Shown here one piece after another: positions 1,802-40,021 of a DNA stretch of 43,044 bases. The DNA comes from a virus. The position numbers and the translations under genes were made by a program. The DNA lies in IMG/VR virus record IMGVR_UViG_3300029400_000005; one strand, 5' to 3'. How positions within the stretch are numbered: the stretch's first letter is position 1; every line of letters starts with the position of its first letter. Under the pieces are notes generated by a model, which made no database searches, was not told the origin of the DNA, and was given only the letters and a program-made list of their open reading frames with translations.

Positions 1802-2370
1802 TGCGTGTCCTCCTTTTTGATTTCAGGCATCCGCACCGATGCAAGGATGCTTGTGCCGCAGGGTGCGGCGGCAATGTAGGCATATGCTTCTACGGGGTCA
1901 CAGAACAGATACATTCCGAACACGATATGCGCAGGCTTGATCTGGTTTACCATGTGGATCAGTTCTTCGCGGTGAAGCTTATCTTCAACGTGAGTGCCGA
2001 TGGTCAGCAGGTAAGCCGGATAATCCACGCGGCATGTCCACCGGCCAACGCCCAGTAACGTGTCGAGCTGTTGGTACAGAAATGCAAGTGTAAAGGGTGG
2101 GCGGGTGCACAAACGCGACAGAATGCGCTGCCGTCGAAAACTCAGCGTTTCGGTCAAAGGCTTTGCCCGGATATGCAGGACTTGTTCCCATTTCTGCACA
2201 GAATCCACATCCATGGTCTGGACAAAAAAGTTCTTCCCGATGACCCGTACACTATCAGCTGTCCGGGAAAATTGTGCTTTTTCAGCGTCACAGACCTGCT
2301 GGTATTCCGCAATTTCCCGGTAAAAAGGCGGCAAAAGGGAATGCAGGTCATGGTTCAGGTCAAGTTCCAT
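1798..2370 (-). CDS. Baseplate/tail protein, DUF2313 (XkdU / P2 gpI-like)
   Basis: LLPPFYREIAEYQQVCDAEKAQF...SFRRQRILSRL motif pattern. I prefer the internal ATG at 2370, which overlaps the stop of the upstream gene, to the track start at 2448. Confidence 0.7.
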   Translation of the reverse strand: MELDLNHDLHSLLPPFYREIAEYQQVCDAEKAQFSRTADSVRVIGKNFFVQTMDVDSVQKWEQVLHIRAKPLTETLSFRRQRILSRLCTRPPFTLAFLYQQLDTLLGVGRWTCRVDYPAYLLTIGTHVEDKLHREELIHMVNQIKPAHIVFGMYLFCDPVEAYAYIAAAPCGTSILASVRMPEIKKEDTQ

Positions 2371-3478
2371 GTAGTTCCACCTTCCCCAGCACCGGAACCT
2401 GCTGCAAAGCACCGGTCTGCTGCAGCGCCATGTCCGCAGCAATCCCATTGAGCGTCAGAGCCGAAACATTGACGACCCCATCAAGAGAGATGAGCGCGGC
2501 AAGGACACGAGCAAGATACACCTCTGCCGAGTAGGCAATGGCCGTACTGCTGATATTGACATCCCAGTTTTTACGAATCTGCAGCAGGTAGTCACTGACA
2601 GCGTCCTGCGCAGGCTGCTGTACGGTTTCAAGTTCGTGTCCGGATGCAAGGGTCAGCGTGGCAGAAATGTCTACAGGCACTGTCTTCGGCGCTGTGACGG
2701 TCACCTGCGCACCGATGGGCGCAAGCCCAAGGCCAAGCCCCTGACCGGGCGGGGGATCGATGGCATTCTGTACCATCTGCACAAGATCACTGGACGCAGG
2801 AAGAAAGTCGGCTCCCAAGATGGAGCAGCACACCGTGCCGCCACCATCCCACACGGGGTAGACCTGCACAGCGCCCACGCCGTCTATCGCTTCGATCTCC
2901 TCAACGTACTGTGCCACGTTTCCACCAAAGCTGCGGCTGTTCAGACGTTCAATGATTCTCGCGCGGAAAGGCTCATCCTCTTCGGTGTTTTCGCCGGGAA
3001 TCAGAAGATCCGTCAACTGAGCGCTGTTCAATCCTTCAATGGAATCAATCGGCAGAATGGGGCCGGAGTATCGGTTGCCGATATCACCGGCAGTCTCAGC
3101 CTGCAGACGGTAGGCGCTTCCCTCCGTAATGGTGGAGATGACCACAAAATTGATACTCTCAGTGCCATTGATCGTTGAAAATCGCGCACCGATCGGAACT
3201 TCACAGTCAAAGATGCCGACCTTTACAGCGGCGGAAGCCTGCTTGCGGGTGATACCGGCCAGCACTGCCAGAAGATCCAGCGAATCGCCGGAGGCTGTCT
3301 GGACGAACGCCTGTTTCTGCACAAGGTCGAGGCTCAGATAAAAGCCCTCAAGCACGTAGGCTGCCGGGCCTACCGCGGTCTGGATAGGGCTGGTATCACG
3401 CTTGTCGTAGGTGTCGGGCACAAGGGAAAGCATGTGATCGAGAATGTTTTTATAGGTTGCAGCTGAAAAATCCTGCAT
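2360..3478 (-). CDS. Baseplate J-like protein (XkdT / gp47 family)
   Basis: 372 aa in the conserved position between the XkdS-like and DUF2313 genes. The start and stop overlap the neighbouring genes. Confidence 0.8.
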   Translation of the reverse strand: MQDFSAATYKNILDHMLSLVPDTYDKRDTSPIQTAVGPAAYVLEGFYLSLDLVQKQAFVQTASGDSLDLLAVLAGITRKQASAAVKVGIFDCEVPIGARFSTINGTESINFVVISTITEGSAYRLQAETAGDIGNRYSGPILPIDSIEGLNSAQLTDLLIPGENTEEDEPFRARIIERLNSRSFGGNVAQYVEEIEAIDGVGAVQVYPVWDGGGTVCCSILGADFLPASSDLVQMVQNAIDPPPGQGLGLGLAPIGAQVTVTAPKTVPVDISATLTLASGHELETVQQPAQDAVSDYLLQIRKNWDVNISSTAIAYSAEVYLARVLAALISLDGVVNVSALTLNGIAADMALQQTGALQQVPVLGKVELHGT

Positions 3479-4391: not shown

Positions 4392-5360
4392 TTACAGAGC
4401 TTTTGCTTCCAGTTCCATGGTGTGCAGATCGTTTTCCCACGTATGAGAGACCTTTTCCAGCATGACATACTTGCGGAACGGGTCGCCGTCAAGATCATTG
4501 ATATTGACCAGAAGAAGCTGTCCCGCCCGCAGGCTATTGACACCCAGCGAGGTGAATTTGAGTTGCTGCAGAACGCGATTGTAATACTCCAGACTGACCT
4601 TTGCCTGCTCCTTGACCTGTGCGTCTGTGGCCGCTTCGTCCACCTTTTGATAGAGCTGCAGCAAGCCCCAGCGGGCAATGGTGTCCGAATCCTTTCGGAT
4701 AAAAACATCGGACTTGCCGGTCTCCTTGTTCGGACGCACCAGCTTGATGCTGTTGTAGGTCTGGGAGTCAATGGACGTGTTGTAGCTGTAGTTGGTCATC
4801 AGGCTCTTTTCGCCGATGATGTAGTCGCTCTTCATATCAGCTGCAGAGCGCAGAGCAACACCATCTCCAGAATCGTAAAAAACAAAGACCGTGCCGGTAT
4901 TCAGCAAGGTCTTCTGGATGGCAGTATTGATGATGTCGATGCAGCTTTTATCCTGCATCACGAGGGAGGGGAGTTTGTAGCCGGTATCGGCCAGCGTGCC
5001 CACATCTACCTGCAGGTCTTCACAGATCTGCTTGATAATGTCGGCGGCGCTCTGGGCATAAAATGTGTAGCTGTTATTTGCTTTCAGGTAGCGCAGCCGG
5101 TCATAGCAGACCACATCCACAGGCCCCCAACGGTCCTGCCCGCGGCTGAATACCCATCCATAAAACTGCAGTTCTCCATCTGCGGAAAACCGTACAACGT
5201 CGCCCTCTTCGATTTTGGATTGCGGCGTGCGAAGATAGGTGAAGGTAAGCTTGCCGGGATTCCCGGTGCGCTGGGTGATCCAGCTTGCGGTTGTTACGCT
5301 GTTAGTGAGGTTTAGCAGGTCTCCGGGCGTTTTGCGGCCCACGATCAGTTCATAGCTCAC
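4392..5360 (-). CDS. Baseplate hub / late control D-like protein (XkdQ/YqbQ family)
   Basis: 322 aa, MSYELIVGRKTPGDLLNLTNSVTTASWITQRTGNPGKLTFTY, in the position after the XkdP-like gene. Confidence 0.7.
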   Translation of the reverse strand: MSYELIVGRKTPGDLLNLTNSVTTASWITQRTGNPGKLTFTYLRTPQSKIEEGDVVRFSADGELQFYGWVFSRGQDRWGPVDVVCYDRLRYLKANNSYTFYAQSAADIIKQICEDLQVDVGTLADTGYKLPSLVMQDKSCIDIINTAIQKTLLNTGTVFVFYDSGDGVALRSAADMKSDYIIGEKSLMTNYSYNTSIDSQTYNSIKLVRPNKETGKSDVFIRKDSDTIARWGLLQLYQKVDEAATDAQVKEQAKVSLEYYNRVLQQLKFTSLGVNSLRAGQLLLVNINDLDGDPFRKYVMLEKVSHTWENDLHTMELEAKAL

Positions 5361-36667: not shown

Positions 36668-36748
36668 CACCTCGCGATTTTGCCGCCCTTGTACCGCTAA
36701 TACAAGGGCGGCAATTTCTTTGGGTTCACCAATGATTTTGATTTTCAT
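36554..36748 (-). CDS. Doubtful small ORF after the cro-like gene
   Basis: GGAGG 8 nt upstream of the ATG at 36748 (MKIKIIGEPKEIAALVLAVQGRQ...). However, it runs through the moron C terminator hairpin and antisense to moron C. Confidence 0.3.
   Translation of the reverse strand: MKIKIIGEPKEIAALVLAVQGRQNREVLAIGEISAKGHSNDLVTKDSQNREIHNGTCGFQTSIL
36680..36721 (+). terminator. Intrinsic terminator of moron C
   Basis: Perfect 14-bp stem TTGCCGCCCTTGTA/TACAAGGGCGGCAA with a 7-nt loop, followed by TTTCTTT. Confidence 0.7.
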
Positions 36749-36780
36749 GTTTTTCACCTCCTTTTGGATGAATTAAATAA

Positions 36781-36795
36781 TCTACTTTAAGTAGA
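36781..36795. promoter_or_regulatory. Distal operator, perfect palindrome TCTACTTtAAGTAGA
   Basis: Overlaps the stop codon of the cro-like gene. Confidence 0.55.
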
Positions 36796-36987
36796 TGCAC
36801 TGGCGAAAAAAATTTGGTCGATGGGAATGCCGACGACCTCACTGATTCTTTTCGCGGTGGCGACGGTAGCGTCTTCGGGCGATTGCTCGATTTTGCGGTA
36901 TGTATCGCGCGAAATTCCGAGCTTTTCTGCCATTTCACGCTGTGTGAAACCGGCGTACTGGCGGGCTTGTTTAACGGTGAATCCCAA
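36787..36987 (-). CDS. Cro-like XRE-family HTH protein
   Basis: GFTVKQARQYAGFTQREMAEKLGISRDTYRKIEQ. The likely start is TTG at 36987, 7 nt after GGAGG (the track GTG is at 36993). Confidence 0.8.
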   Translation of the reverse strand: MGFTVKQARQYAGFTQREMAEKLGISRDTYRKIEQSPEDATVATAKRISEVVGIPIDQIFFASAST

Positions 36988-37019
36988 GTTCACACCTCCT
37001 TTCGTCTGGGTTCGAGAAT

Positions 37020-37048
37020 ACTATACTCCACTTTTAGTAGAATGTCAA
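37020..37048 (-). promoter_or_regulatory. Early lytic promoter (PR-like) TTGACA-17-TATAGT
   Basis: The -35 is at 37043..37048 and the -10 at 37020..37025 on the minus strand. Confidence 0.7.
37027..37041. promoter_or_regulatory. Operator copy TCCACTTTTAGTAGA (13/15 match to the distal palindrome)
   Basis: Lies inside the spacer of the PR-like promoter. Confidence 0.55.
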
Positions 37049-37062
37049 GAACTTAAAGTAGA
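37048..37062. promoter_or_regulatory. Operator copy AGAACTTAAAGTAGA (12/15)
   Basis: Abuts the -35 of the PR-like promoter, 21 bp centre-to-centre from the previous copy. Confidence 0.45.
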
Positions 37063-37079
37063 AAATTTTAAAATAAATG

Positions 37080-37108
37080 TTGACATAGCTCTACTTTTGG
37101 TGTAATCT
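37080..37108 (+). promoter_or_regulatory. Candidate repressor promoter (PRM-like), TTGACA with a weak -10
   Basis: TTGACA at 37080..37085. The -10 is either TAATCT (17-nt spacer) or TGTAAT (15-nt spacer). Confidence 0.4.
37090..37104. promoter_or_regulatory. Operator copy TCTACTTTTGGTGTA (11/15)
   Basis: Lies inside the spacer of the PRM-like promoter, 42 bp from the previous copy. Confidence 0.4.
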
Positions 37109-37130
37109 CTACATATAAGGAGTGATTCAA

Positions 37131-37760
37131 TTGAGCATCGCTGAAAATATTAAAAAAATCCGATTGGAACACGAGCTATCACAGGCTGACCTTGGCAAGA
37201 TTGCAGGTGTCAGCGACAAAGCGGTGTCCACTTGGGAACTCGGGATAAAAATACCTCGCATGGGCGCAGTGGAGAAAATGGCAAATTACTTTGGTATCCC
37301 CAAAAGTGCAATTTTGGATGATGCCCAGCCCGCTCCTGCATCCCGTCCCATCCCCCCGGGCTTTGAGCCGATGCCGAAGATGAAGAAGATCCCGCTGATC
37401 GGCAGCATTGCCTGTGGGGAACCCATCACGGCAGAGCAGAACATTGAAAAAATGGTGGACGTGCCGGAGAACATCCGGTGCGATTTTTCCCTGACCTGCC
37501 ACGGTGACAGCATGGTGGATGCCGGCATTCACGATAAAGACGTGGTGTATATCCGCATCCAGCCGGAGGTGGAGAACGGCGAGATCGCAGCGGTGCGCAT
37601 TGATGGTGAAGCCACCCTCAAGCGGGTATATTACAACCCCGGCACGCTGACCCTGATGCCCGCAAACCCGGCTTATGCGCCCATGATCTATACCGGCTCC
37701 CAGCTGGAAGAGGTGCACATTGAGGGCAAGGCCGTAGGCTGGACGCACTGGGTGGGGTGA
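37131..37760 (+). CDS. CI-type repressor: XRE HTH plus S24 (LexA-like) self-cleaving peptidase domain
   Basis: LSQADLGKIAGVSDKAVSTWELG; ...HGDSMVDAGI...ATLKRVY (Ser/Lys dyad). I prefer TTG at 37131 (AAGGAG 8 nt upstream) to the track GTG at 37122. Confidence 0.85.
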   Translation: MSIAENIKKIRLEHELSQADLGKIAGVSDKAVSTWELGIKIPRMGAVEKMANYFGIPKSAILDDAQPAPASRPIPPGFEPMPKMKKIPLIGSIACGEPITAEQNIEKMVDVPENIRCDFSLTCHGDSMVDAGIHDKDVVYIRIQPEVENGEIAAVRIDGEATLKRVYYNPGTLTLMPANPAYAPMIYTGSQLEEVHIEGKAVGWTHWVG

Positions 37761-37807
37761 AAAGCGATATTTCACTAAAATTTGCGAAAAATAACCAATA
37801 ATTGATT

Positions 37808-37819
37808 ATTTTGCAAAAT
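37808..37819. promoter_or_regulatory. Perfect 12-bp palindrome ATTTTGCAAAAT upstream of the NYN promoter
   Basis: Read directly; it ends 3 nt before the -35. Confidence 0.6.
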
Positions 37820-37822
37820 GAG

Positions 37823-37851
37823 TTGACAAAATCAACAAAAACGCATATAAT
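37823..37851 (+). promoter_or_regulatory. Consensus sigma-70 promoter TTGACA-17-TATAAT
   Basis: The -35 is at 37823..37828, the spacer is 17 nt, and the -10 is at 37846..37851. Confidence 0.75.
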
Positions 37852-37857
37852 GGGGGT

Positions 37858-37969
37858 GCATCTTTACAGGATGCCATCAGAAACATGATGTTTCAAAATG
37901 CTTAACAGACCCCTGGTAGTAAGCCCCCCGCCGATATGGGGAAGGCTGAATCCTGGGGTCTTATTTTTT
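37858..37969 (+). promoter_or_regulatory. Structured 5' leader: two abutting mini-hairpins plus a long terminator hairpin with U-tract
   Basis: GCATC-N7-GATGC at 37858..37874 and CATCA-N6-TGATG at 37875..37890. AGACCCCTGG...CCTGGGGTCT (37907..37961) has an inner GCC-CCCC/GGGG-GGC stem and is followed by TTATTTTTT. Confidence 0.6.
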
Positions 37970-37990
37970 ACCAAAGGAAGTGTAACACAA

Positions 37991-38671
37991 ATGGCAAAGA
38001 CAGCAATTCTGGTTGATGGCGGCTTTTACCGCAAACGTGCAGCCCACTTGTGGGGCAAAAAGACCGCCGAGGAACGTGCGAAGGAACTGAATGCTTACTG
38101 TATGGCTCACCTTCACGATAAGGACGGCAACGAGGAGCGTCAGCTGTACCGCATTTTCTATTACGATTGTGAGCCAGTAGGCCGCCGCAGCGTGTACCAC
38201 CCGCTGACAAAGAAGAATGTGGATTTGGACAAATCTGATACTTATACATGGACGCAGACCTTTTTGGAAGAATTGCGGAAGCGCAGAAAATTTGCACTCC
38301 GCCTTGGTACATTGTCCAACCAAATAGCCTACAATCTGCGCCCGGATGTGACCCGCAAGCTTCTTGCTGGCACAAAGCAGCTGGAAGAGCTGACCGAGGA
38401 CGATTTCGTTTTTGTGGCTCAGCAAAAGGGCGTGGACATGCGTGTTGGTGTTGATATTGCGTCACTCGCGTATAAGAAGCAGGTTGATCAGATCATTCTG
38501 ATTGCCGGTGACAGTGATTTTGTCCCCGCTGCCAAGCTTGCCCGACGGGAGGGCGTGGACTTTATCCTTGACCCGATGTGGGCTGATATCAAGCCTGATC
38601 TGTTTGAGCATATTGACGGCCTGAAGAGCCAGTGGCGTAAGCGCAGCGAAAAAGCTGAAGCGAAGAAGTAA
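37991..38671 (+). CDS. NYN-domain (LabA/DUF88-type PIN-like) putative ribonuclease
   Basis: 226 aa from the ATG at 37991 (AAAGGAAG RBS): MAKTAILVDGGFYRKR...QQKGVDMRVGVDIASLA...IILIAGDSDFVPAAKLARREGV. Confidence 0.75.
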   Translation: MAKTAILVDGGFYRKRAAHLWGKKTAEERAKELNAYCMAHLHDKDGNEERQLYRIFYYDCEPVGRRSVYHPLTKKNVDLDKSDTYTWTQTFLEELRKRRKFALRLGTLSNQIAYNLRPDVTRKLLAGTKQLEELTEDDFVFVAQQKGVDMRVGVDIASLAYKKQVDQIILIAGDSDFVPAAKLARREGVDFILDPMWADIKPDLFEHIDGLKSQWRKRSEKAEAKK

Positions 38672-38679
38672 GGCCAAAC

Positions 38680-38727
38680 AATGTGCAAATTTTGCACATT
38701 GCTTCCAGCCGTTGCAAAATCTGCAAC
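38680..38727. repeat. Two palindromes: AATGTGCAAAtTTTGCACATT and GTTGCAaaatcTGCAAC
   Basis: At 38680..38700 (10-bp arms) and 38711..38727. The 13-mer TGCAAAATCTGCA (38713..38725) is identical to 23462..23474. Confidence 0.8.
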
Positions 38728-38735
38728 AGCTCAAT

Positions 38736-38819
38736 AAAAACAAAAAACGCCCCCGGTGCTACCAACACCGAGAGCGTTTGCAGAGTGGCTTGCCCCAGAG
38801 GGTACAATCCAACATGAAC
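38736..38819 (-). ncRNA. Predicted small RNA (~85 nt) between the NYN gene and int
   Basis: It is bounded by a strong promoter and a strand-specific terminator. The terminator is a 13-bp stem at 38746..38778, fully paired only in the minus-strand RNA via two G-U pairs, followed by U6GU5. Confidence 0.5.
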
Positions 38820-38825
38820 ACTTGT

Positions 38826-38854
38826 ATTGTACCACCTCCGGGCAGGCTTGTCAA
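38826..38854 (-). promoter_or_regulatory. Strong minus-strand promoter TTGACA-17-(TGg)TACAAT
   Basis: The -35 is at 38849..38854 and the -10 at 38826..38831, with an extended -10 TG. Confidence 0.65.
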
Positions 38855-38884
38855 AGTGTACCCTTGTGTATGGAGGTGGATTTT

Positions 38885-40021
38885 ATGAAAAAGAGAACCA
38901 ACACGGCATTTTGGGTCGAGAAGGAAAGCCGCTGGTGCATCGCGGTGCAGAAGAACGGTACCCGCAAGCGCTTTTACAGCAGCACGCCGGGCCGCACCGG
39001 CCAGCGGGAAGCAAACGCAAAAGCGGATGCATGGCTCGACGACAGCATCCGGGACGGCAAGAAGAAGGTAGCTGCCCTCTATGCCCAGTGGGTAGAAGAA
39101 CTGAAGCTCACCTGCGGCACATCCTATGTTGAGCAGTGCAAGAAATACGGAGATTACTATATTCTGCCTGTCTGTGGGGACATCCGCATTGACGAGCTGA
39201 CCGAAGGCGATCTGCAAAAAGCCATCAATCTGTCTTTCAAAAAGCGATGCCTTAAAAAGGAGCGTCAGCGTAGGTCAAGCGACAAGCCTTTGAGCCGCAA
39301 GACCCTTATGACGATCCGCTCAACGGAGATCAGCTTTTTGAAATGGTGCCGCCGGAACAGGTACAGTACGATGTTCCCTGAGCTGTCTATCCCGAAGAAT
39401 GCCCGCATGGGGAAGAAAAAGATTTTACAGCCGACCGCTTTGAAAGTCCTGTTTGATGTGGACACCCGCCTTTACTATGGCAAGCTGGTCTTTGACGAGT
39501 ATATCTATGCCTACCGGTTTGCAGTTGCTACAGGTGTACGCCCCGGTGAACTTGTGGGGCTCTGGTATGGTGACGTCAAAGGGAACACCGTCAATCTGCG
39601 CCGCAGCATCAACCGGATGGATGAAGAAACCACCGGAAAGAATGAAAACGCTATTCGTTCATTTGACATGGGCGAGGAAGCCCATGAGGCCTACGAAGCG
39701 CAGGTAGCCTTGCTGAAGGCTTCCGATATCCCGCTGAACTATACCACCCCTTTGTTCCAGATCCCGAACCAGAGAGCTTTATTCAAGCGCTGGAAGAAGT
39801 ACCAGCGTGACAATGGCATTGAGCCTCAGGTCACGCTGTATGAGATGCGGCACACTTTCGTCAGCATTGAATCCGGCGTATTGACCGACAGCCAGCTGAA
39901 GATGCTGGTCGGTCACAGCAAGAACATGGATACTGCCGGAGTGTATCGGCACGAGCTTGATGGTCAGAGGGAAGATCTTGCTGCCGCTACCACCGCGGCA
40001 TTCAAAAAGGCACAGGCCTGA
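38885..40021 (+). CDS. int: Tyrosine recombinase / phage integrase
   Basis: ATG at 38885 with GGAGGTG upstream. Carries ...ATGVRPGELVGL...MRHTFVSI...LVGHSKNMDTAGVYRH. Confidence 0.9.
   Translation: MKKRTNTAFWVEKESRWCIAVQKNGTRKRFYSSTPGRTGQREANAKADAWLDDSIRDGKKKVAALYAQWVEELKLTCGTSYVEQCKKYGDYYILPVCGDIRIDELTEGDLQKAINLSFKKRCLKKERQRRSSDKPLSRKTLMTIRSTEISFLKWCRRNRYSTMFPELSIPKNARMGKKKILQPTALKVLFDVDTRLYYGKLVFDEYIYAYRFAVATGVRPGELVGLWYGDVKGNTVNLRRSINRMDEETTGKNENAIRSFDMGEEAHEAYEAQVALLKASDIPLNYTTPLFQIPNQRALFKRWKKYQRDNGIEPQVTLYEMRHTFVSIESGVLTDSQLKMLVGHSKNMDTAGVYRHELDGQREDLAAATTAAFKKAQA

Follow-up and report, generated by a model that had tools for sequence, protein, structure and literature searches.

Here we describe a compact cassette, carried in a 43,044-nucleotide (nt) stretch of viral DNA (IMG/VR record IMGVR_UViG_3300029400_000005; hereafter the window), in which a structured RNA with its own promoter lies directly ahead of a gene for an NYN-domain protein, a predicted RNA-cutting enzyme. 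The carrier is a temperate gut phage, and the cassette occupies its lysogeny module, between the genes for a CI-type repressor and a tyrosine integrase. The same RNA precedes the NYN gene in every viral locus (57–100% protein identity) in which a model of the RNA could be tested, and it is homologous to Teg147, a small RNA (sRNA) of Staphylococcus aureus. The cassette recurs in many prophages and probably represents a toxin or defence module under RNA control that has not been described before. We propose, with moderate confidence, that it is a self-contained unit of temperate-phage lysogeny modules in which the RNA restrains the NYN nuclease, and that the pair provides the lysogen with exclusion or abortive infection.

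The RNA was delimited from an initial sample of 76 viral loci encoding NYN homologues (57–100% protein identity), using the 200 nt upstream of each gene. The same hairpin is present upstream of the gene in all 76, with compensatory changes plain in its outer stem, and a covariance model built from 34 distinct NYN-leader sequences (R1) places the motif directly upstream of the gene in 76/76. Further loci came from an alignment-based search that gave the best 80, all with at least 58% identity; the 33 that were testable all have the motif in the same position, which brings the total to 109 of 109 testable viral loci (57–100% protein identity). Among 40 distinct sequences, 16 of the 17 base pairs show changes on both sides, and 88.3% of cells pair, compared with 76.0% in shuffles; 0 of 500 shuffles equalled any observed measure of pairing, and the signal collapses when partners are slid by 1 to 3 columns either way. 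G–U pairs agree with the plus strand. Conservation extends to nucleotides that do not pair—the 5′ flank UAAYAR, an internal loop in which (U)AGUA stands opposite GAA(U/C), the signature of a loop-E/sarcin–ricin motif, and AUA in the apical loop—and so goes beyond what a plain terminator needs. A preliminary description of this DNA had called for a test of covariation and conservation in the leader, and had read the bulged hairpin as a terminator; its shape and position were described correctly, but, judged by its covariation and its loop-E motif, the hairpin is a structured RNA under structural selection and not a plain terminator.

Variants of the motif were also seen. One clade (loci L067–L072) is without the AGUA/GAA loop. 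At locus L019 (3909..3982; IMGVR_UViG_3300008620_000092), the NYN gene of which is 100% identical, a cluster of substitutions changes TGGTAGTAAG to TCGCCGCAAG, so that both the AGUA loop and the 5′ half of the outer stem are lost and the R1 score drops from 84 to 56.9 bits; this leader may be a natural mutant or an assembly artefact.

The leader is predicted to be a transcription unit of its own. Its promoter in the window matches the sigma-70 consensus perfectly, as first described, and is the sole 12/12 site within 36700..39000; transcription is predicted to start near 37858. Of the distinct leaders, 67 of 85 have a match of at least 10/12 within 140 nt upstream, a level seen in only 6 of 330 control segments, with a median of 35 nt from the end of the −10 element to the start of the model, and there is no room for a second promoter between the motif and the ribosome-binding site (RBS) of the NYN gene. 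The 12 nt past the stem contain a median of 8 T residues, and in most of the homologous loci listed the RBS follows a few nt to about 20 nt past the U-tract. An intrinsic terminator between the RNA and the NYN open reading frame (ORF) is thus predicted and conserved, formed in the window by the bulged stem and TTATTTTTT (Table 1).

The window leader folds better than its shuffles (z = −2.55). We folded 38 leaders, each beginning at its predicted transcription start, and repeated the folds with the outer stem blocked: the motif hairpin was part of the minimum-energy structure in 38/38, forbidding the outer stem (P1) cost a median of 13.3 kcal/mol, and the 5′ segment folded on itself, leaving a single-stranded linker. 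An antiterminator, a riboswitch and a classical attenuator were each considered and rejected, as there was no competing structure in the 38 folded leaders and no Rfam riboswitch match; any control must therefore come from a factor and not from a riboswitch-type rearrangement.

Much of the preliminary description of this leader holds. The 12-bp palindrome is exactly where it was reported, the failure to find an antiterminator pairing is borne out by the folds, and a terminated RNA of about 110 nt is supported as a prediction. Other parts need revision. Two abutting mini-hairpins had been read as units of one design; both are present in the minimum-energy fold, but they are neither a tandem repeat nor conserved in sequence, and homologous leaders retain one or two 5′ hairpins that are unrelated in sequence between clades (median −6.5 kcal/mol for the 5′ segment). 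The mini-hairpins are therefore real but clade-specific, and probably serve as 5′-end stabilizers. The idea of a repeat array fails: Tandem Repeats Finder, which recovered the 3 × 36-nt array of a genuine toxIN locus (in L137), reports no tandem repeat in 37760..38000, and the only repeat in the leader is an imperfect 16-nt repeat in two copies. The distance of about 20 nt given between the U-tract and the RBS is also wrong: the U-tract stops 4 nt short of the RBS and 21 nt short of the ATG.

The cassette is invariably found in the lysogeny module. Diverse Bacillota-type loci (10/10) have an HTH_3 (helix–turn–helix) repressor gene upstream, in the same orientation, and downstream a gene for a tyrosine or serine recombinase/integrase, in agreement with the reported location of the 226-amino acid ORF between the CI-type repressor and integrase genes of the window. 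The NYN gene is thus an accessory gene of the lysogeny module, transcribed in the direction of the repressor gene. The identical NYN cassette follows CI alleles with either 72% or 100% identity to that of the window, and it therefore behaves as a mobile module. Searches with tblastn identified NYN homologues in the cultured phages DO134P1 (Dorea), Javan85 (Streptococcus), Bacchus (Lactococcus) and phiE202 (Burkholderia), the leaders of which are all matched by R1, and in Escherichia lambdoid, 48 Stx2a-converting, Proteus and Moraxella phages. The E. coli phage ev099 carries its NYN gene between cI and N, which is the slot in which lambda carries rexAB; in the Proteus phage Brookers the gene comes directly after a gene for a LexA-type repressor. 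DNA of the ev099 leader and gene was matched in 275 of 5426 complete E. coli genomes, with at least 80% of its length covered in 74 of these, and among the twelve matches listed no RNA gene is annotated at the leader in RefSeq. The hosts of the motif include Oscillospiraceae, a Marvinbryantia genome bin, Negativicutes, Peptoniphilaceae, Acetobacterium and bins labelled Proteobacteria.

An Rfam scan, also suggested in the preliminary description, connects the leader with a known RNA. The hairpin of the window matches TEG147 (RF03535; 37.9 bits, E=1.2e-5) over model positions 1–60 and with the same helices, although the gathering score of 56.1 is not reached. In the reverse direction, R1, built from NYN leaders only, finds the genuine S. 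aureus Teg147 at 56.1 bits (E=3e-13). The Rfam model scores the S. aureus copy at 87.9 bits and the NYN-linked copies of Javan85, Bacchus and DO134P1 at 52.6, 38.2 and 36.2 bits, and 0 of 20 diverse NYN loci attain its gathering score; the curated family therefore captures orphan staphylococcal copies only. Teg147 is listed as a bona fide sRNA of 60 nt (NCTC8325 386294..386353; PMC5826253) that is expressed from a genomic island (PMC3053349) and for which JAR3D lists a sarcin–ricin motif (PMC13085918). Its published ends correspond to the hairpin plus the U-tract and, together with its expression, suggest that the hairpin terminates transcription and accumulates in vivo.

Teg147 appears, on comparison of the sequences, to be an orphan copy of the NYN leader. 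It has no 5′ hairpins, and its surroundings comprise an exotoxin-like (Ssl-type) ORF and a fragment of an IS3-type transposase, both recognized by eye from translations. On its 3′ side are an RBS, ATG-CAA-TAG and then IDKVAILIYGVFIS, ended by a stop codon; no NYN gene follows. The similarity of IDKVAILIYGVFIS to the NYN N terminus (query residues 3–21; 37% identity, E-value 0.9) is suggestive of a possible 14-codon remnant of an NYN gene. The literature on Teg147 yielded no link to NYN genes. Two observations concern records of Staphylococcus phages. A 183-kb contig of S. aureus that was submitted under the name ‘Staphylococcus phage SA 1306 Kay’ (UNVERIFIED_ORG; L077 860..957, minus strand) carries the sRNA sau-63 (128 bits), Teg147 and an exotoxin-like (Ssl-type) ORF, and from these contents appears to be bacterial chromosome and not phage. 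In the lytic Kayvirus phages, among them Staphylococcus phage phiIPLA-RODI (L078 2501..2541), a region that carries no annotation contains, past a promoter-like site, a Teg147-like sequence (UUAUAAUGAGAGUAGGAGCC...GAAAUCAUUAUA; 78–80% identity over 41 nt). Its support from blastn is weak (E-values from 0.1 to 5), and R1 with default filters finds nothing there.

The product of the NYN gene is a predicted RNA-cutting enzyme. The NYN identity proposed in the preliminary description was upheld by a hidden Markov model (HMM) search (PF01936; 39.1 bits against a gathering cut-off of 24.2, E=1.4e-9, residues 140–190), and PF01936 is precomputed on all 120 closest homologues. The acidic positions that it quoted are covered by conserved aspartates: across 58 homologues (37–57% identity), D9, Y58, D59, P62, R104, D155, P179, A184 and D209 are invariant, and D149, D174 and D176 are conserved in at least 90%. 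An AlphaFold2 model has an alternating beta/alpha fold (predicted local distance difference test (pLDDT) 94.6, predicted template modelling score 0.89), and a library of predicted viral structures returned three matches at E≤0.001, two of which are named, as NYN and LabA-like proteins (probability 1.00, with modest template modelling scores of about 0.40–0.46). A profile search of Protein Data Bank (PDB) sequences gave only 2qip, at E=0.95, and NCBIfam gave weak partial matches only.

The protein is a member of phrog_5783 (E=1.7e-89), a phage family of unknown function, and its nearest homologues are named from Subdoligranulum and Pygmaiobacter genome bins. A word-indexed search scored at least 8000 candidates at E≤0.001, and a search of 50%-identity cluster representatives retrieved 2027 proteins at the same threshold; at least 525 IMG/VR stretches encode a relative, and one 90% cluster occurs on at least 1000 contigs. 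In the literature we found no tested phage-defence role for this NYN family, no link of NYN family proteins to a leader RNA and no work on ‘Cpp15’ as a phage protein.

The dependence between gene and RNA runs one way. A gene-blind scan for a pattern of the motif core, confirmed with R1 and detecting intact cores only, gave 42 hits in viral contigs, 32 of them with an NYN gene next, and 39 hits among genomes taken one per species, with NYN next in 27 and no NYN gene in 12. Altogether NYN lies at a fixed short distance after the motif in 59 of 81 hits (73%). NYN thus implies the RNA (109/109), whereas the RNA does not imply NYN. In some loci that lack NYN, toxIN or Abi_2 takes its place behind the RNA, in a slot that is used by exclusion and toxin modules. 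In loci L137 and L127 a complete promoter–RNA–terminator unit precedes a canonical toxIN, which has a promoter of its own and then three 36-nt repeats, a terminator and the ToxN gene (PF13958, E=1e-49); in L137 (2720..3143, minus strand; IMGVR_UViG_3300029547_000018) the orphan unit and the full toxIN lie upstream of the integrase gene. Locus L122 has two copies of the promoter and leader, one before a 125-amino acid ORF and Abi_2 (PF07751, E=2e-35), the other directly before a 288-amino acid ORF of unknown nature, which was considered as a hidden NYN/PIN protein and rejected (hhalign probability 0.4%; no Pfam or PADLOC match). A HicB-like ORF, recognized by eye only and without a PADLOC match, lies at +462 in L210, and motif copies stand directly before integrase genes in L198, L206, L177 and L114. 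A Sutterella sp. genome bin (L178) has tandem copies 21 nt apart (2342..2415 and 2436..2509; 52.2 and 60.7 bits), with no NYN gene within 1.6 kb downstream.

We regard a type III-like or autoregulatory pairing of RNA and nuclease as the best reading of these data. The conservation of unpaired nucleotides, the linkage to NYN across phyla, the one-way dependence and the presence of toxIN and Abi_2 in the same slot together make the NYN protein the most economical partner for the RNA. That the RNA exists without NYN, whereas NYN without the RNA was not seen, is an asymmetry typical of toxin–antidote pairs. In the proposed mechanism, a strong constitutive promoter would drive a structured RNA of about 110 nt, composed of 5′ stabilizing hairpins and a hairpin of about 55 nt of the loop-E/sarcin–ricin type. 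The hairpin and U-tract would act as an intrinsic terminator efficient enough in this phage that most transcripts end as free small RNA, and the predicted RNase would be encoded only by read-through transcripts, its RBS starting 4 nt past the U-tract. The UAAYAR flank, the AGUA/GAA loop and the apical AUA may form a recognition surface to which the NYN protein binds, and the abundant RNA would check the scarce and presumably toxic nuclease in one of two ways: in trans, as an antitoxin comparable to those of type III, or in cis, as an operator through which the gene regulates itself. If this balance were upset, for example by phage infection or a shut-off of transcription, the nuclease would be freed, with exclusion or abortive infection as the outcome.

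Several observations weigh against this proposal. Around 27% of the gene-blind motif hits are without NYN, and an RNA that is orphaned or sits beside toxIN or Abi_2 weakens a strictly NYN-specific antitoxin reading; the orphan copies may be undecayed remnants, as the pattern search finds intact cores only. The duplication in L122 before unrelated genes fits a portable expression leader as well as it fits a specific partner. R1 finds nothing in the leaders of the enterobacterial NYN genes (homologues 43–45% identical), even with filters off. These leaders (ev099, L079 2874..3000; Brookers, L229 2352..2500) share a flank, UUAAAC, that resembles the one in the motif, along with a promoter-like site, a hairpin of three helices and a T-run, and one base pair shows a compensatory change between E. 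coli and Proteus (GCAGA/UCUGC versus GUAGA/UCUAC); the topology of the hairpin is similar, with an outer stem GCCCAG/CUGGGC, but its interior differs and lacks the loop-E motif. On the side of the protein, Foldseek found no match to the model in the PDB at E≤0.001, despite the pLDDT of 94.6, and PADLOC-DB v2 gave weak partial matches of about 44 residues each, to a generic NYN model (E=1e-5) and to HEC-09 (E=4.7e-4). HEC-09, the one distantly related NYN defence candidate with a published test, gave no protection against any phage tried (bioRxiv 10.1101/2024.01.29.577857).

A stricter form of the proposal is possible, and we advance it tentatively: the cassette would represent a new class of RNA-antitoxin (type III-like) toxin–antitoxin (TA) or abortive infection (Abi) systems, in which a single non-repeated loop-E hairpin, abundant because it doubles as its own terminator, directly neutralizes an NYN RNase. 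Such systems would have been disseminated in the lysogeny modules of prophages, reaching from Clostridia and Bacilli as far as Burkholderia, with Teg147 as an orphan antitoxin left after loss of the toxin.

Less likely is that the promoter and strong terminator make up a portable expression leader for dangerous lysogen genes, of which NYN is the commonest cargo; the loop-E hairpin would be bound in trans by some different protein, such as an antiterminator, an RNase or an RNA-binding protein (ribosomal or not), and not by NYN, and this factor would set read-through or mRNA stability. Loop-E/sarcin–ricin motifs are classic protein-binding modules, and regulated read-through would need a factor, as the terminator folds constitutively. 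The duplicated unit before Abi_2 and the 288-amino acid ORF and the orphan units directly before integrase genes point the same way. The motif travels with NYN from Bacillota to Burkholderia, however, making a shared host-specific factor unlikely, and the fixed spacing to NYN in 73% of gene-blind hits and the independent promoter and terminator of toxIN, which does not use the leader, also speak against it.

We would be more surprised if the unit were an independent, trans-acting sRNA of the Teg147 family with a target or partner of its own, for example as a decoy or sponge, and NYN had been inserted into its cargo slot for low expression by read-through. The unit does have a complete promoter and terminator, and it persists without NYN in S. 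aureus and in the 12 of 39 genomic hits noted above, several of which have promoters of at least 10/12; two tandem copies stand without NYN in the Sutterella genome bin, and Teg147 itself is classed as a bona fide sRNA (PMC5826253). Yet NYN was never seen without the RNA (109/109), and the gene has no separate promoter, its RBS lying right beside the U-tract; this points to linkage at the level of the cassette and not of the phage backbone; the cassette also moves between phages with different repressors and integrases.

It is doubtful that NYN is a housekeeping RNase of the phage, one that for example processes transcripts of the lysogeny module, with the hairpin as an autoregulatory cleavage site. 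RNase III, RNase E and Regnase-1 regulate their own mRNAs through a stem-loop in the leader or untranslated region, the NYN gene is very common and apparently well tolerated, with one 90% cluster on at least 1000 contigs, and it has no strong match to known defence-system models; but the gene is dispensable, with related phages carrying toxIN, Abi_2 or nothing in its place, and in enterobacterial phages it takes an accessory slot after the repressor gene. Finally, an ordinary intrinsic terminator behind a moron promoter, with the likeness among loci due to recent common descent, would account for a GC-rich stem and U-tract downstream of cI, but it is refuted, as far as sequence analysis goes, by compensatory changes at 16/17 pairs in 40 distinct sequences, by the conserved unpaired nucleotides and by matches across phyla and to S. 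aureus Teg147 (E=3e-13).

Among the closest known systems are the type III TA/Abi loci (ToxIN, CptIN and TenpIN). They have the same order, from a constitutive promoter through a structured RNA and a Rho-independent terminator to an endoribonuclease ORF expressed only by read-through; they too are carried on mobile elements, an excess of RNA over protein is expected here as there, and the genuine toxIN of L137 stands in the same slot, where it follows an orphan unit of the present RNA. Their antitoxin is a tandem repeat, whereas the RNA described here has no repeats and consists of one hairpin, about 55 nt long and ending in a terminator, which would require no processing; their toxin is ToxN/AbiQ, CptN or TenpN, whereas here only PF01936 NYN was found. 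The type III architecture suggested in the preliminary description thus stands for the predicted terminator before the ORF, and falls for tandem repeats and for a ToxN, CptN or TenpN toxin; as it lacks tandem repeats and an antiterminator and its mini-hairpins are not conserved in sequence, the cassette is not a canonical type III TA system. The preliminary description knew of no NYN-family example of that type, and we likewise found no link between NYN and type III TA in the literature. Teg147 itself (RF03535, listed as ‘Cis-reg’ with function unknown) shares the three-helix hairpin, the AGUA/GAA internal loop and the U-tract; in S. aureus it is an orphan without 5′ hairpins, whereas NYN leaders have both 5′ hairpins and a gene.

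A second comparison is with rexAB of lambda, sieB of P22 and stk of 933W, which are lysogen-expressed exclusion genes placed after the repressor gene. Their position and orientation match those of NYN in ev099, Brookers and the Bacillota phages (between the HTH repressor and the integrase); their protein families are unrelated to NYN. These genes are co-transcribed with the repressor gene or lie behind simple promoters, and we know of no gene of this type with a conserved structured leader RNA. The eukaryotic proteins Regnase-1, N4BP1, KHNYN and MARF1 probably have in common with the phage protein an NYN-type catalytic fold with clustered aspartates; no sequence relationship is detectable beyond the domain, and the RNA element is unrelated. 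Regnase-1 recognizes stem-loops and regulates its own mRNA through one, and KHNYN and N4BP1 are antiviral. HEC-09, a PADLOC candidate embedded in Hma, shares an NYN domain in a defence context and gave the weak HMM match noted above; it differs in having an N-terminal helix–turn–helix-like domain, and no leader RNA has been described for it. The element is best classed with the nuclease cassettes that are under RNA control, and at its centre is a Teg147 RNA family now larger than before.

Should the RNA and the nuclease prove to work as a pair, they would extend the RNA-controlled toxins by a new fold, NYN, and by a new kind of RNA, one structured hairpin in place of a repeat array, supply a candidate function for phrog_5783, a large phage family of unknown function, explain an S. 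aureus sRNA that has been catalogued since 2010 without a role, and connect the biology of bacterial prophages with the antiviral NYN RNases of animals. Because the cassette is carried by the cultured phages DO134P1, Javan85, Bacchus and phiE202, and a variant hairpin by lambdoid and P22-like phages of E. coli and Proteus, these ideas are directly testable. Even if the RNA is a leader only, it is a well-supported and widespread structured motif that is represented in Rfam only by orphan staphylococcal copies.

Table 1 Features of the NYN cassette and its neighbours in the window
Feature	Coordinates	Strand	Evidence or remark
CI-type repressor gene (HTH_3 + Peptidase_S24)	37122..37760	+	Pfam PF00717 E=5.7e-27, PF01381 E=8e-11; upstream neighbour, outside cassette
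12-bp palindrome ATTTTGCAAAAT	37808..37819		Exact match; just 5′ of −35 element
Sigma-70 promoter, TTGACA–17-nt spacer–TATAAT	37823..37828 and 37846..37851	+	12/12 consensus match
Mini-hairpin GCATC-N7-GATGC	37858..37874	+	In minimum-energy fold
Mini-hairpin CATCA-N6-TGATG	37875..37890	+	In minimum-energy fold
Teg147-like RNA motif, full R1 match	37899..37972	+	84 bits, E=1.6e-19; single strong copy in window
Long bulged hairpin	37908..37960	+	Terminator-shaped
Motif 5′ flank UUAACAG		+	Single-stranded
Motif helix P1	37908..37916 with 37952..37960	+	
Motif internal loop, UAGUA opposite GAAU	37917..37921 opposite 37948..37951	+	
Motif helix P2	37922..37925 with 37944..37947	+	
Motif helix P3	37926..37929 with 37938..37941	+	
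Motif apical loop	37930..37937	+	
U-tract TTATTTTTT	37961..37969	+	Directly 3′ of bulged hairpin; ends 21 nt before NYN ATG
NYN gene RBS AAAGGAAG	37973..37980	+	Read from sequence; begins 4 nt past U-tract
NYN gene (LabA/DUF88-like, PIN-like fold; predicted RNase), 226 amino acids	37991..38671	+	PF01936 match
Tyrosine integrase gene	38885..40021	+	Pfam PF00589 E=1.1e-7, PF14659 E=5.8e-6; downstream neighbour, outside cassette

Two other coding possibilities in the leader were rejected. A 257-amino acid ORF from an ATG at 37898, which overlaps the hairpin in the program-made ORF list, is an artefact, because homologues begin at the position of MxKTAILVDG. A leader peptide was considered for a 6-codon ORF in the window (ATGATGTTTCAAAATGCTTAA) that ends in the UAA of the conserved flank; by inspection, its frame is lost in relatives such as L024.

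The palindrome ATTTTGCAAAAT was rejected as a CI operator, as the repeats between cI and cro differ from it (CTACTTTT(A/G)GTAG-type) and it is not kept outside close relatives; it might instead serve as an UP-like element, being rich in A/T, or be bound by a different regulator. In the cI–cro intergenic region (37020..37110), three similar sequences, ACTTTTAGTAG, ACTTAAAGTAG and CTACTTTTGG, surround a divergent minus-strand promoter (TTGACA-17-TATAGT, 37048..37020) and are probably repressor operators, unrelated to the palindrome at the NYN promoter. Just past the NYN stop codon (38681..38731) are two further palindromes, AATGTGCAAATTTTGCACATT (21 bp, perfect) and GTTGCAAAATCTGCAAC, which share the core TTGCAAA with each other and with that at the NYN promoter; the palindromes on both sides of the cassette may be binding sites for a regulator.

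A small transcription unit on the minus strand lies between the NYN stop codon and the start of the integrase gene. It consists of a promoter with an 11/12 match (TTGACA-17-TACAAT with a TG extension, 38854..38826) and, about 45 nt downstream, a hairpin of 16 pairs with a T-run (38779..38745), to which R1 gives 17.7 bits only (E=0.6); the unit (38745..38854) would yield a convergent RNA of about 75 nt opposite the region upstream of the integrase gene. At the equivalent place in locus L060, also between NYN and integrase genes and on the opposite strand, there is a second, diverged copy of the motif (4996..5067, minus strand; 40.4 bits, E=2.6e-7).

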